Assembly: GCA_029856365.1 (NCBI GenBank)
Contig: JAHQWW010000079.1
Span: 1-17,199 of the forward strand
Length of the DNA stretch: 17,199 nucleotides
Source: Candidatus Hodarchaeota archaeon
GTDB taxonomy: Archaea > Asgardarchaeota > Heimdallarchaeia > Hodarchaeales > Hodarchaeaceae
Reading direction: 5' to 3'
In this document: piece by piece, positions 3,654-17,169 of the stretch
Numbering within the stretch: the stretch's first letter is position 1
Layout of the letters: each line of letters begins with the position of its first letter
The notes under the pieces: model-generated
The model's database searches: none
Seen by the model: the letters and a program-made list of their open reading frames with translations, nothing else
What the model was told of the DNA's origin: nothing
Translations under genes and position numbers: made by a program

Positions 3654-3681
3654 AAACACTTGAAATGCTGGATTAACACTT
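3654..3681 (+). repeat. Dispersed boundary motif, copy 1 (AAACACTTGAAATGCTGGATTAACACTT)
   Basis: The core AAATGCTGGATTA matches the other copies; the left arm is degenerate. It lies between divergent genes if the starts are 3494 and 3729. Confidence 0.6.
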
Positions 3682-3728
3682 TTGGAAAAACATTTAAATA
3701 TTCAAACCATATCAAACGAGACCTTAAC

Positions 3729-4553
3729 ATGCGATCTGATATGTTTAATTTTCCTGTGGAAATAAAAAAGCTTGATTGGCCATTTAATTCTAATTTTGAT
3801 GAAAATGAGATTCACCAGCTTCTTAATGATTTTGGAGGATTTTTAAAACCTCAAACAAAAGAAGATCGCTTGGAATTCTATGAATTTACTCGTACAGGAC
3901 TAGGCTTAAGTCGATCAGCCATTGTACTCTTTCTACCAGGTAAAGGACATTTCTCCATCAAAGCATATGCATACCCTCCACCAATAACTCTCTCTCTAAA
4001 GAAACCTCCAGTAAGCTTAGCAAATTATCATCGGATGCGGGTTCAGCATTTAATACATTCTCTTGAAGAGCATTTCCCTGATACACATATCATAGAATCA
4101 AAGTCTGAAAACATGTTAATTATTTGTCAGGAATTTTTATTTCATCCAATATGTGAATTCAATACTCCTCAACAAATCAGCCAATTAATTGAAATTCTTT
4201 GGTTAGCATCACGAGCTCGGATTTTATTAGATTATAATCAAAGTAATTGGCTTGTTTCAGGATTGGAATTCCTTTATTATGTTGACACAGATTATATTGG
4301 CCATTCATATGTTAACCTTGATAGATGTCTTTTAGAGAACTTAAACCAATCGATGGCTTTTTTCACACCAGAAAATGTTAAGTTACTACCTCAAGCTCTT
4401 AAAGGTTTTTCTGAACTCAGTGAAACCCACACTAAGTTTATTAATAGATTTAGAAATGTATTGAAGAAGATTATAGAAAGCTGGGACAAAAATAAGTTAT
4501 CAGAAGGAAATAAACAGAAATATGACATATTTGCTCAAATTGTTAAGGCTTAA
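3729..4553 (+). CDS. Hypothetical protein with probable protein-kinase-like (atypical) fold
   Basis: Motifs occur in kinase order: GLGLSRSA (Gly loop), FSIKAY (beta-3 Lys), ICQEFL (hinge), LLDYNQSNWLV (DxxxxN), YYVDTD (DFG-equivalent). The start is more likely ATG 3729 or 3741 than GTG 3603. Confidence 0.6.
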   Translation: MRSDMFNFPVEIKKLDWPFNSNFDENEIHQLLNDFGGFLKPQTKEDRLEFYEFTRTGLGLSRSAIVLFLPGKGHFSIKAYAYPPPITLSLKKPPVSLANYHRMRVQHLIHSLEEHFPDTHIIESKSENMLIICQEFLFHPICEFNTPQQISQLIEILWLASRARILLDYNQSNWLVSGLEFLYYVDTDYIGHSYVNLDRCLLENLNQSMAFFTPENVKLLPQALKGFSELSETHTKFINRFRNVLKKIIESWDKNKLSEGNKQKYDIFAQIVKA

Positions 4554-4570
4554 AGGCTGGAATAGCCCTT
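4543..4570 (+). repeat. Dispersed boundary motif, copy 2 (TTAAGGCTTAAAGGCTGGAATAGCCCTT)
   Basis: The core AAAGGCTGGAATAG overlaps the stop codon at 4551-4553; the left arm is degenerate. It also forms a small GGCT/AGCC hairpin before a T-rich tract. Confidence 0.55.
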
Positions 4571-4863
4571 TTATTTCATTTTTTCTTTATAATTAAGATG
4601 ATGCCTATAAGGTTGTTAAAAAAACAGCCAAAATCTGAACAGAGTTTTTGATTTCTCAATTGAATAAACGGGAAGAGTTTGTGGATCGAAACTTACAACA
4701 AACTGAAGCATGAGATTGAATATCTAAGGCATATTAAAGATGATGTGAATTAATTTTATTACTAAATTTGCTTATCAAAATTCTAATAGTTTTGAAATCA
4801 AAGAAAACTAACAAAAGATTTAAGAATTTTGAAAATTTTATTTTGCTACTCTTTTTAGGAAGC

Positions 4864-6216
4864 TTGAATTTGCTAAATCAAAAGGAAAAGATTTACTATG
4901 GAATGGGTCGCTTTGGGAGCAGTGTAATGTTAAATTTGGTGTCACTTTTCACTTTATATGTTTATGTAAAGTATTTCGCGTTGTCAGGATTATATACTGG
5001 CTTAGCTGCAGGGTTAGGAAAACTAGCTATAGCTCTTGCTTCTTGGTTAAGTGGTTATTTCAGTGATATTACCCCCAATAATCGATTTGGTAGGCGGAGA
5101 GTGTGGGTAATATTCTTTACTCCAATATTAGCATTCTTTTTTGTAATGCAGTTCTCTCCCCAATTTTTCGTTCCATTAGGTAATGAGTTCCTTGTATTTA
5201 TTTATTTGGCAATCTTTGGGTCTGGTTTCCAGGCTTGTTATGCTCTTTTAACAACTCCCTTTCAAGCTTGGATGCCCGAAGTTGTTCCTGAATCTGACAG
5301 AATTGAAGTTTCAGGTTATCAAAATACTGCTAATTTCATTGGAAATCTGGTGGGGACAGCGCTCGGTTTTCTCCTCCCCTCTTTAATCGGTGATCCTGAA
5401 ACAGCTGACATTCTAGGTTCTGCTGGGTTTATCCTTTTAGCTTGTGTATTGATTATTGCAGGTATTGAATTGATATTCTACCTACCAAGTATTTTCTTTG
5501 TTCCAGATCCCCCACGAGAAAATATTCCTCCTCCAAGTCCGCTAAGAGAGCTCAAAATTATTCTAACCAATAGGAACTACGTCTCATGGATTATGGTAAA
5601 CGGAGTTCACACCATTGGTCTAACTTCACTAGCAACAATAGTATTAATCTACATTGAAGATGTGTTACAATTTGAAGTTACTGAGTACATTATCTTTGGA
5701 ATATGCTTGTTCGGAACTCTTATTCTGATGTTTATCTTTTGGGGATATTTCTCTAATCGTTATTCGAAAACTAGAACCTACCTTGTATCACAACTGTATC
5801 TTGCACTTGTGTTACCATCGACTCTAATTGTTGGACAGGGCGTTATACCGTTATCGTTATTAATTCAAGGAATAATTTTTGCTCTCCTCCTAGCAATCGG
5901 GATGTCAGGTTACTTCATACTACCTTACGCTATTATGGGTGACATTGTCGAAAAGGACGAAAAGGATACTGGTGAGACTCGCTCTGGACATTATACTGGC
6001 TTTTTTGGATTACCACTTAACATCTTTCAAGCAGGAGCAGTCATCCTCACAGGTATTCTGGTCGATGAAGAGCTTCTTCCTCTAGTTGCTGGGGAAGAAT
6101 ATACTGTTGGACTTATTCTCTGGGGGCCAGTATGTGGGATCTTTATCTTAATAGCTACAATATTATTTTATTTTTTGGTCAATGCTGATCCTCTAAAAAA
6201 TGCAAAGAATCTGTAA
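4864..6216 (+). CDS. MFS transporter, glycoside-pentoside-hexuronide (MelB/GPH-like) family
   Basis: About 12 TM helices with family motifs EKIYYGMG, GYFSD...RFGRRR, PFQAWMPE...R and MGDIVEKDEKDTGETRSGHYTG. The likely start is TTG 4864 (or 4870) after AGGA. Confidence 0.9.
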   Translation: MNLLNQKEKIYYGMGRFGSSVMLNLVSLFTLYVYVKYFALSGLYTGLAAGLGKLAIALASWLSGYFSDITPNNRFGRRRVWVIFFTPILAFFFVMQFSPQFFVPLGNEFLVFIYLAIFGSGFQACYALLTTPFQAWMPEVVPESDRIEVSGYQNTANFIGNLVGTALGFLLPSLIGDPETADILGSAGFILLACVLIIAGIELIFYLPSIFFVPDPPRENIPPPSPLRELKIILTNRNYVSWIMVNGVHTIGLTSLATIVLIYIEDVLQFEVTEYIIFGICLFGTLILMFIFWGYFSNRYSKTRTYLVSQLYLALVLPSTLIVGQGVIPLSLLIQGIIFALLLAIGMSGYFILPYAIMGDIVEKDEKDTGETRSGHYTGFFGLPLNIFQAGAVILTGILVDEELLPLVAGEEYTVGLILWGPVCGIFILIATILFYFLVNADPLKNAKNL

Positions 6217-15452: not shown

Positions 15453-15600
15453 TTATGGATGACATATGAAAAACAGGTAATTGATCTCAAAGGTTTCATC
15501 CAGAATATCGAAAAATCGGTTCTAAAAAAATGATTCTTTACATCAAATAATATAATTTTACTATAACAATTCTTTAAAACCTCTCACTTCTAATAATAAC

Positions 15601-16914
15601 TCATCTAAGAGTATTACTTATTGACAATGATTTCAGGAGGAGAAGAGAGTAAGCTAGTAAACTAATAAATTGAGCTAAACCAAGAATGATTTTCGAAAAA
15701 ATGAATGTTATTATTTTAAAAATCATTGCAGGGTCATTCATCTCTACAGAACTCATTAACATGAAAGAATTAAGAATTGTAGTACTGAACAATAGGAGGG
15801 GACCAAATAGACAAATGTATGATAAAACGCGGCCTATGCTTATTTCAGAAAGATAATTAAAGTGATATTTCAGTATTACAACTATTAAGATTATGATTGA
15901 TGGAATAATTGGGAATAGATTAATGAAAGTCGGAAAAAGGTTTCCAATTGAGGGTAAAATATTTCCTGGTGTACCAGTATAATGAGTAGTGATATTATAT
16001 TTCAAATCAGATGATATAATCGATAGTACGCTGAAAGTTGGAATAGCAATTAACCAAAAGATTTTCTGATTGACGATAGAAAATATTTTTCCTAGCTGTA
16101 GTTCGTCTATTTGATCTTCATTTTTGGATGGAAGATGGTTGATTATGAAAAATACAATACCGAACAGGAAGAAGTAACTCGTTATCCATATGAAAATAAG
16201 AATTCCCATTGTTAGATATGGCTGAATGAATACTATTTCTGGAAAAAACAACTCATTAAACAATAATGCGGTTAATAATTTAGGGAATGATTCCTGATAT
16301 CCCCAAAACGAATACTCCAACAGTATAAATGCTAATACCATGGTGAAAATGCAGAATATCAATAATGAAAAGGAATTAAACAATGCTATTCGAAAAGAAA
16401 TTCTTTTTTTGCTCAAAAGCAGCAAATAATACCCAAGATAGATGAAAGGAAACATTAGTGTGATAGTTAAAAAGAATGGGGAAAATAGATCATAAATTGG
16501 TAACCATGTTATGATTAGAAAAATTAGCATCAATCCTACAATTAGTGTGAATACTTTCATCAATAGAAAGTCATTTCTGAATTTCAGTCTAATATGGGAA
16601 GGAGAGGAGTCGTTTAGAACTATCATCCCTCCTTCGTTATTATTTGCCAGTCGAATTTCATTATTCTCAAATTTTAACAATAAAACATAGATTTTTTGTC
16701 CGAGTGATGTTAACTCATACAATCCCTCTTTATTTTTCCTAATTAAAGAAGAAAGCTTCTCTAAATGAAATGATAATTTACTGGTTGACTCTAATGATAA
16801 TTCCATGAGGATTTCAGAGAACGTCCGCGGTTCATTATCTAATAATTTAATAATTTCAACTCTAATTGGATTTGCTACTAAACTCAAGAGTTTTGCTAAG
16901 TCCTCTGACTCCAT
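15601..16914 (-). CDS. ArsR-type winged-HTH protein fused to a multi-pass membrane domain
   Basis: ANPIRVEIIKLL...TFSEI...LSFHLEKL...YELTSLG followed by about 8 hydrophobic helices; SD-like GAAGGA upstream. Confidence 0.85.
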   Translation of the reverse strand: MESEDLAKLLSLVANPIRVEIIKLLDNEPRTFSEILMELSLESTSKLSFHLEKLSSLIRKNKEGLYELTSLGQKIYVLLLKFENNEIRLANNNEGGMIVLNDSSPSHIRLKFRNDFLLMKVFTLIVGLMLIFLIITWLPIYDLFSPFFLTITLMFPFIYLGYYLLLLSKKRISFRIALFNSFSLLIFCIFTMVLAFILLEYSFWGYQESFPKLLTALLFNELFFPEIVFIQPYLTMGILIFIWITSYFFLFGIVFFIINHLPSKNEDQIDELQLGKIFSIVNQKIFWLIAIPTFSVLSIISSDLKYNITTHYTGTPGNILPSIGNLFPTFINLFPIIPSIIILIVVILKYHFNYLSEISIGRVLSYICLFGPLLLFSTTILNSFMLMSSVEMNDPAMIFKIITFIFSKIILGLAQFISLLAYSLLLLKSLSISNTLR

Positions 16915-17114
16915 ATTCCTTCATATTAATCATAATATCGTATTTTAAATCCATTTTGACAAATAATTCAGGTCAATAAAAATTGACGGTTTCTTTTTTG
17001 GGAAGGATTTCCTAGCAAAATCAAAACAAGAAGTAAATATTGATGTCAAAGTAGATTTAACCTATATAAAGGTCCCAAATTATGATTTAGCTATTTCTAA
17101 TTGTGTTCTGGATT

Positions 17115-17138
17115 AGTATAGACCGACGAGTATATACT
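17115..17138. promoter_or_regulatory. Imperfect palindrome, candidate operator
   Basis: AGTATAGAC-CGACGA-GTATATACT. Confidence 0.35.
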
Positions 17139-17169
17139 TTTGTAATCTAAACCAGCCCTTGACGAAGTT
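17131..17169 (-). repeat. Dispersed boundary motif, copy 7 (inverted); right member of the 39-bp inverted pair
   Basis: The reverse complement reads AACTTCGTCAAGGGCTGGTTTAGATTACAAAAGTATATA. Confidence 0.85.

Follow-up and report, generated by a model that had tools for sequence, protein, structure and literature searches.

The window analysed here, a stretch of 17,199 nucleotides, is the entire contig C97 (17.2 kb) of G000, a Candidatus Hodarchaeota archaeon genome of 4.24 Mb in 204 contigs, and it raises the question of what a short, oriented motif is doing at one gene boundary after another. In an initial annotation made from the sequence alone, the motif was taken for a recombination site that divides the region into cassettes of one or two genes and is distinct from the attC sites of integrons. 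Our sequence comparisons support oriented recombination-type sites that cut the region into one- or few-gene cassettes and differ from attC. We regard as the probable explanation, with moderate confidence, an integron-like cassette system in which exchange takes place in the AAAGGCTGG core through the action of a recombinase, probably of the tyrosine type, whose gene lies in trans.

Seven main copies of the motif had been reported, and all of them were recovered, at 3653–3677, 4542–4566, 6228–6252, 7428–7452, 10065–10089, and 15043–15067 on the plus strand and at 17146–17170 on the minus strand. As claimed, each lies between genes. In the 316-amino-acid open reading frame (ORF) next to the copy at 3653, similarity to orthologues begins at about residue 20–27, which places this copy upstream of the true start; the copy at 4542 overlaps the stop codon of the same gene. 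The core AAADGCTGRWTTA, with at most one mismatch, matched the window eight times against 0.68 expected, and eight matches were reached in 0 of 200 dinucleotide-preserving shuffles; one of the eight, at 7833–7845 on the minus strand, is a chance match within a coding sequence (CDS). A position weight matrix (PWM) derived from the seven window copies and applied to the whole genome with a cut-off of 17 bits gave 22 matches in G000, seven of them in the window. Seventeen of the 22 were intergenic, while about 86% of the genome is coding by an ORF proxy, and the motif is thus not equally frequent in CDSs. Outside the window, the strong matches were mostly located on the short contigs C47, C109, C99, C100, C120, and C176. 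Three core-only copies that had been listed beside the main ones (13273 and 17108 on the plus strand, 700 on the minus strand) each scored below 7.2 bits and were unsupported as sites; the suggested division of the 10090–15042 unit at about 13259 is therefore unsupported, the weak copy there not being a site.

Although the genomes are metagenome-assembled genomes (MAGs), the arrays lie on short contigs, and some of these contigs end at a site (e.g., C97 and C99), it is hardly credible that the pattern arose from chance matches or from chimeric assembly at a short repeat. The observed count exceeded that of every shuffle, identical junctions were found in independent metagenomes (L189 with L194; L187 with L196), and the closed 4.9-Mb genome G009 contains arrays as well. 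In a different run, X6, which was not flagged as a possible source, Logan contigs span the window joints at 3653, 10065, and 15043 with 0–1 differences, indicating that these three joints are not artefacts of one assembly. Contigs of four runs on the window, a type of data that drops rare variants, showed no alternative joint at any site, and their sole irregularity was a 119-bp skip at 3345–3465 in one run.

The consensus of the site was built from copies in 21 other genomes of the same genus (Hodarchaeum-type Heimdallarchaeia). The motif first noticed proved to be the left part of a longer oriented site that is limited to one genus and occurs in two types. Type A (about 52 bp, 41–66 copies) reads AACTYCGTMAAA-GGCTGG-TTTAGATTACAAAAGTATATAC-TAGG-GTATATAC, and type B has the left arm AACTYCGTMAAA and the GGCTGG core, followed by ATTAACAC. 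The most invariant columns are GGCTGG and its neighbours, among which G15 and T17 are invariant and the remainder are conserved in at least 90% of the 41–66 copies. In half of the sites, the right half is a promoter-like stretch of 30 bp that travels with the downstream cassette. An exact 13-mer of the site matched up to 19 times per genome in the genus, with at least 10 matches in 11 of the 22 genomes and 0–1 in a few, some of the low counts being chance matches in coding sequence. In eight other genera, the same 13-mer gave 0–3 matches per genome, as did its reversed control, and a 16-mer scan of wider genome contigs returned mostly single chance matches in unrelated bacteria.

Adjacent copies were co-oriented in 94 pairs and opposite in 4 (of 98), with a median spacing of 1.6 kb, and the single-strand bias reported for the window was confirmed, site 7 alone being inverted. 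The genes beside the sites did not follow this polarity. The upstream gene was on the same strand as the site in 32 cases and on the opposite strand in 42, and the corresponding numbers for the downstream gene were 35 and 41. All four combinations of flanking strands were present, convergent ends included, at site-to-gene distances of 9–966 nt, and types A and B did not differ in the strand context of their neighbours. The lack of a fixed orientation or distance relative to genes argues against a simple promoter or terminator, in agreement with the reasoning of the initial annotation. Polarity of the replichore type was also rejected, since site orientations are mixed along the closed chromosome of G009.

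A more elaborate regulatory explanation, which we consider rather unlikely, is that the site is a spacer (a T-run terminator, an insulator or operator to which a genus-specific DNA-binding protein binds, and a promoter with a B recognition element (BRE) and TATA box) maintained between the genes of variable islands, and that shuffling is due to homologous recombination or gene conversion at 20–50-bp identities with no dedicated recombinase. The type-A right half ACAAAAGTATATAC indeed resembles the promoter of the first window cassette, GGAAAAACATTTAAATA, which is conserved in five species, and T-rich runs precede many left arms. A regulatory spacer leaves unexplained, however, why 94 pairs against 4 are co-oriented across genes on both strands. 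In addition, site direction is independent of the neighbouring strands, convergent placement occurs at chance frequency, and type A stands no more often than type B ahead of same-strand genes. Both explanations may hold in part, the right half being the promoter of a cassette and also a part of the site.

Where homology between genomes begins and ends was examined at 178 sites in species and strain pairs. The segments between sites behave as units of homology, and one segment recurs in 2–4 species with differing neighbours. In pairs homologous on the left flank only (n = 9), identity continues through GGCTGG and then drops to the background level; in pairs homologous on the right flank only (n = 9), identity begins at AAAGG. 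The homology switch thus falls inside AAAGGCTGG in 18 of 18 informative pairs, a restriction of the switch zone that also argues against the regulatory spacer. Homology on both flanks was limited to two same-strain duplicates from different samples, showing that gene order across the sites is not conserved in relatives. Two examples have very high identities. To the right of the core, L195 and L024 share 99.6% identity over 2.5 kb; to its left they are unrelated, and the switch falls at AAAGGCTGG. At the junction in L189 and L194, which derive from two metagenomes and share 99.6% identity, a cassette 97% identical to L001:7851–9042 is joined to a relative of a different L001 cassette, with the switch within the site, and the two cassettes sit at two separate places in L001.

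The pieces of the window are scattered in closed G009, at six separate places (0.32, 2.53, 2.57, 4.44, 4.48, and 4.50 Mb), and on different contigs in other species. As a control, 17.2 kb from contig C160 were subjected to the same search and were found to be collinear in G009, G007, G011, G014, G015, and G017. The scrambling therefore belongs to the arrays and not to the genus. Orthologous genes of other species retain decayed half-sites at the same ends.

These breakpoints also bear on the idea of a selfish short repeat of the type of miniature inverted-repeat transposable elements (MITEs) or repetitive extragenic palindromes (REPs), inserting in intergenic DNA of variable islands between genes that are not themselves mobile. 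Such a repeat would be intergenic, multi-copy, genus-specific, and clustered on short contigs, as the sites are, but its insertion would leave flanks that are contiguous in relatives, whereas the halves of the site travel with different cassettes and each flank is inherited independently of the other. Terminal inverted repeats, target duplications, and an inverted partner, the hallmarks of MITEs and insertion sequences (IS), were all lacking. We consider this explanation very improbable.

The comparisons show the sites, their polarity, the structure of the cassettes, and the breakpoint positions. At one end, a cassette bears a right half-site of its own, which is either TTTAGATTACAAAAGTATATAC... 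(type A) or ATTAACAC... (type B); one to three genes on either strand come next, and the other end has the left arm and core, AACTYCGTMAAA-GGCTGG. From this structure and the breakpoint positions, we infer the following course of events for the integron-like system. Gain, loss, and re-sorting of cassettes through exchange within the shared AAAGGCTGG stretch would leave direct, co-oriented sites. An enzyme encoded elsewhere is presumed to carry out the exchange as conservative site-specific recombination: as in integrons, cassettes would be cut out as circles and enter a site that is already present. The crossover (spacer) region would then be the invariant asymmetric GGCTGG and the protein-binding arm the left arm, and a tyrosine recombinase would be the likeliest class of enzyme.

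Does the site resemble attC or another structured element? Within 120 nt of the core, no complement to it was better than the best one in shuffled sequence, and the folding of 104 site-ending 121-nt segments gave mean z values of 0.07 for the top strand and -0.11 for the bottom strand, no attC covariance model being applied. Rfam and transfer RNA (tRNA) scans of the window gave nothing. Together, the lack of an inverted partner, of excess folding, and of matches in these scans indicates that the site is neither attC nor an att site of the tRNA type. A hairpin GTATATAC-N4-GTATATAC in type A was likewise rejected, because 72.7% of the cells were paired against 71.9% after shuffling, 66 of 500 shuffles were as high, and there was no covariation.

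Two local variants of the site were observed. An identical 40-nt sequence follows three type-A sites (G000:C109:5160–5230, G000:C99 at the contig end near 16640, and L008:372–440); it contains a hairpin-like dyad TATGGCAA...TTGCCATA. All three belong to one cassette family, whose conserved 5′ end is this sequence, possibly a structured leader. At L003:7241–7328, a type-A site is followed 63 nt on by a type-B site, which together delimit a gene-less mini-cassette (right half, 12 nt, left arm) that may be the footprint of a deleted cassette.

The search for the enzyme yielded one near-universal candidate. Of the 22 genomes of the genus, 19 encode a single XerA-like tyrosine recombinase (e.g., L054:8928–9839), at a distance from the arrays, and the protein of G000 has Pyrococcus abyssi XerA (4A8E) as its best PDB match (2.6e-61). 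IntI was not found at the array heads, and the XerA-like gene was the sole near-universal PF00589 match. Other tyrosine recombinases, of a second class, were patchy and did not track the arrays, and serine recombinases and Y1 transposases were undetectable in G000 and G009. That XerA itself is the enzyme is a possibility we put forward with reserve, as it is the only near-universal candidate. Equally tentative is the fuller proposal of an integrase-less analogue of the integron, in which XerA, or an unrecognised recombinase binding the GTCGTMAAA arm, would take up circular cassettes and reshuffle them at dif-like sites that have one arm and the invariant GGCTGG as the crossover. As a separate observation, a degraded tyrosine-integrase fragment with several stop codons lies between cassette sites on a short array contig (G012:C160:1602–2037, L017).

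Candidates for a chromosomal dif were rejected for different reasons. Palindromised versions of either arm were absent from G000. The best-looking of 424 candidates from an 11-6-11 palindrome screen, C145:3096, occurs in G000 alone. CGTCAAA-GTCTTG-TTTKACG, present in at least 6 genomes, shows codon-like conservation and is part of an open frame of 187 codons. For the palindromes of G018, G001, G014, and G009 whose spacers resemble GGCTGG, the flanks proved to be non-homologous.

One palindrome, GTCGTCAAA-N6-TTTGACGAC, has arms that equal the left arm of the cassette site (e.g., G000:C18:3581–3604 and G018:C82:265–288). It occurs in 2–9 copies (1 in one genome) in 20 of the 21 other genomes of the genus, against 0–1 per genome (3 in one) for the control, and was not found in any of the 19 genomes of other genera that were searched. 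Most copies are intergenic, and no long open frame runs across 21 of 25. Its spacer is variable, with single copies carrying GGCTGG (G018), GGCTCG (G001), and GGTTAG (G014), and the flanks of these three are not syntenic. Judged from the sequences, a genus-specific protein probably recognises this arm, and the palindrome could be a recombinase site or an operator. By analogy, the arm-6-arm geometry fits the core site of a tyrosine recombinase, and an arm palindrome with a free spacer is equally the classic operator form for a dimeric regulator, as a regulatory spacer would have it. A regulatory spacer does not, however, explain why GGCTGG is invariant in cassette sites and the spacer free in palindromes; this difference would be predicted if strand exchange depended on spacer homology.

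Several points weigh against the integron-like system. The initial annotation had parsed the motif as arm, spacer, and arm; GGCTGG stands as a highly conserved spacer, but the right side (TTTAGATTACA or ATTAACAC) is not the inverse of the left arm, and a single arm is recognisable. A PF00589 search found no recombinase beside the arrays or in the window, as had been stated for the window, and no enzyme was found to co-vary with array presence. Species with few or no sites (e.g., G001 and G016) have the XerA-like gene as well, so that it is non-discriminating, and the palindrome searches identified no chromosomal dif. In the right-homologous pair L001:693 and L007:6311, several differences lie inside the site and almost none beyond it. 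Exchange within 18–52 bp of identity could stem from homologous recombination or gene conversion, and a regulatory role of the BRE/TATA-like type-A right half and the T-runs is possible and could be the selected function. The patchy differences in that one pair and the lack of a recombinase linked to the arrays are also what a regulatory spacer would predict.

With this in mind, the window can be read site by site. The sites, cassettes, and relics are as follows, with PWM scores given for the sites.

3653–3677, plus strand: junction site 1, type B (GCTGG / ATTAACAC), left arm degenerate, 25.3 bits.
3678–4541, plus strand: cassette 1, a protein of about 290–316 amino acids with no Pfam family and its own BRE/TATA-like promoter at about 3690–3702.
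4542–4566, plus strand: junction site 2, decayed, AAAGGCTGGAATAGC right after or overlapping the stop codon, 19.9 bits.
4567–6227, plus strand: cassette 2, an MFS_2/GPH-type transporter (ORF 4768–6216; Pfam PF13347, 5.7e-33).
6228–6279, plus strand: junction site 3, type-A-like (GGCTGGATTAGATAAGAAAAGTATCTAC...), 32.5 bits.
6280–7427, minus strand, opposite to the site: cassette 3, a RING-finger-like protein (ORF 6367–7248; weak Pfam RING matches).
7428–7452, plus strand: junction site 4 (CAACTTTGCGAAAGGCTGAATTAAA), 29.1 bits.
7453–10064, plus strand: cassette 4, a Ras-family small GTPase-like protein (7564–8103) and an M14 zinc carboxypeptidase (8250–10046), both from Pfam.
10065–10089, plus strand: junction site 5, the best copy (CAACTTCGTAAAAGGCTGGATTACC), 35.3 bits, 19 nt past the M14 stop codon.
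10090–15042, plus strand: cassette 5, a 911-amino-acid protein (10383–13118), an Hcp-family protein (13398–14021), and a 279-amino-acid protein (14043–14882).
15043–15094, plus strand: junction site 6, type A (AACTTCGCAAAATGCTGG / TTTAGATTACAAAAATATATAT...), 31.3 bits.
About 15403–15452, plus strand: decayed type-A relic (CTTGGTTAATTTGAAGGACTTGTATATACCGCGGTCTATAC), from direct reading of the sequence.
15095–17118, minus strand, read from site 7: unit between the inverted sites 6 and 7, an ArsR/DUF7347 helix-turn-helix protein with a membrane part (ORF 15601–16914).
17119–17170, minus strand: junction site 7, type A, the sole inverted copy, 29 nt from the contig end, 33.9 bits.

At site 1, the orthologous cassettes of four species are homologous exactly from GCTGG/ATTAA onward. 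Orthologues of cassette 1 (70–86% amino acid identity) occur elsewhere in G009, G014, G011, and G019, with unrelated left flanks. The position of the left arm of site 2 is occupied by coding sequence, and a relic of this site is also present 3′ of the orthologous gene in G014 and, in part, in G009. For the transporter, orthologues in G019 and G007 have decayed (left-arm) site relics past the stop codon. Site 3 lies 12 nt past the transporter stop codon. On its other side, the minus-strand gene of cassette 3 has its 3′ end towards the site; orthologues of this gene (79–83% amino acid identity) were found in three other contexts.

Close to site 4, two further observations were made: a 65-bp stretch just upstream of it, 7345–7409, recurs with 83–85% identity at G000:C109:6613–6677 and G013:C207:7648–7712, and alternative contigs of run X1 diverge at 7314, 7369, and 7409. 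Orthologues of the M14 gene were found in seven species, where the homology comprises the gene alone and the flanks differ; in G020 and G005, a site lies 3′ of this gene in the same relative orientation as in the window. A metagenome search with the M14 protein found no relative.

The interior of cassette 5 contains no site supported by the PWM, and its 911- and 279-amino-acid proteins belong to no Pfam family. The gene between them (13398–14021) shows that an Asgard archaeon encodes an Hcp-family protein, that is, one of the type VI secretion tube family (PF05638, 2.4e-25). The relic at 15403–15452 contains one of two GTATATAC-N4-GTATATAC-like matches genome-wide. Because sites 6 and 7 are inverted to each other, the unit 15095–17118 could invert. 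Its protein (Pfam PF24038 and PF01022) has an orthologue with 69% amino acid identity in G019:C295, and the 170 bp adjoining site 7 recur next to a site in G009. The array in the window is comparatively old: sites 1 and 2 are decayed, and most cargo genes have orthologues genus-wide.

The left 3.6 kb of the window, encoding major facilitator superfamily (MFS), Ig-like, tautomerase, response regulator, and tetratricopeptide repeat (TPR) proteins, is a mosaic in relatives and has no recognisable sites. Within it, about 310 bp on the minus strand (1423–1732) encode a 73-amino-acid protein of the 4-oxalocrotonate-tautomerase family (PF01361, 1.8e-12). Copies of this module with 86–92% identity are present on G000:C122 and in 10 or more genomes of the genus. 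In a mangrove run, its depth is high and its edges, at 1426 and 1738, are sharp; in the window it is not flanked by any cassette site.

Among 128 array ORFs of relatives, PIN domains were the commonest (14 of 128), followed by ABC ATPases, methyltransferases, DinB, and others. Multi-member families numbered only 62 among 540 array ORFs, and no shared "platform" gene was found among these 540 at the array ends. In G000, diverged repeats of about 850 bp (64–72% identity) form a very long array in the interior of contig C5 (C5:4400–18500), which suggests a giant repetitive protein gene, and one cassette-type site is located on the same contig at C5:30881.

How, then, does this system compare with known ones? 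The integrons reported from archaea are all of the classical attC/IntI kind (PMC9668308), and many integron-type arrays, archaeal ones included, have no adjoining integrase (clusters of attC sites lacking integron-integrases, CALINs; Ghaly et al. 2022, PMC9668308). The arrays share with integrons and CALINs the co-orientation of sites, cassettes of one or a few genes, very diverse accessory cargo in which toxin-antitoxin (PIN) genes are abundant, a single conserved site at each boundary, the recurrence of cassettes with changed neighbours, and a boundary at a fixed point in a short conserved core (94:4; 18 informative pairs). In chromosomal super-integrons, the repeats are homogeneous and lineage-specific, as are those of the Hodarchaeum site. 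Unlike integrons, the arrays have no IntI, cassette genes lie on either strand about equally, and half of the sites carry the 30-bp promoter-like right half; the Hodarchaeum site also has no imperfect palindrome, no R''/L''-L'/R' partner, and no excess single-strand folding.

The initial annotation had likened the arrays to dif modules, which are moved by host XerC/XerD on Acinetobacter plasmids and chromosomes (Mindlin et al. 2019, PMC6449649). The likeness extends to small adaptive gene modules, short recombination-type sites, and an arm-6 bp spacer-arm layout, as well as to the lack of a dedicated recombinase with host Xer as the presumed agent and confinement to one genus (PMC6449649). The pdif sites, however, are two-armed 28-bp dif look-alikes, whereas the Hodarchaeum sites have one recognisable arm and form archaeal chromosomal arrays. 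Moreover, pdif sites flank their modules in inverted, alternating orientation. The Hodarchaeum sites, in contrast, are direct in 94 of 98 adjacent pairs.

The archaeal Xer/dif system (Cortez et al. 2010, PMC2958812) is similar in that the XerA-like gene occurs once per genome and does not adjoin the sites, as with Thermococcales dif. The A-rich arm end, G+C-rich 6-bp spacer, and T-rich arm start are also shared with archaeal dif, which reads ATTGGATATAA-TCGGCC-TTATATCTAAA in P. abyssi. Archaeal dif, however, is single-copy and two-armed and resolves chromosome dimers, whereas the Hodarchaeum sites are multi-copy, one-armed, and cassette-bounding, and the arms of Thermococcales dif show no sequence likeness to those of the Hodarchaeum site. 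For Cre, the loxP arm is ATAACTTCGTATA. The T-variant of the left arm, AACTTCGTA, equals nine consecutive bases of the loxP arm and stands beside an asymmetric spacer, a likeness that may be due to chance and serves as a lead only; the genus consensus is more often AACTCCGT, and neither a second inverted arm nor a Cre-like gene is present. Full-text searches of the literature revealed no account of arrays of this kind from Hodarchaeales or from other Asgard archaea.

For gene capture in bacteria, the integron is the textbook example, and the arrays described here reach the same outcome with a site that forms no hairpin and with no integrase alongside. In practical terms, the site marks variable islands and helps to correct fragmented MAG assemblies in the genus. 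If a housekeeping Xer-type enzyme is indeed responsible, cassette capture would have evolved independently from the machinery of chromosome resolution, and it would be a concrete route, open to testing, by which Asgard genomes could have come by their large content of accessory and bacterial-derived genes. The hosts belong to the Heimdallarchaeia, the archaeal group closest to eukaryotes; with the proposed integrase-less analogue of the integron, close relatives of eukaryotes would possess a dedicated platform for the acquisition of accessory genes.

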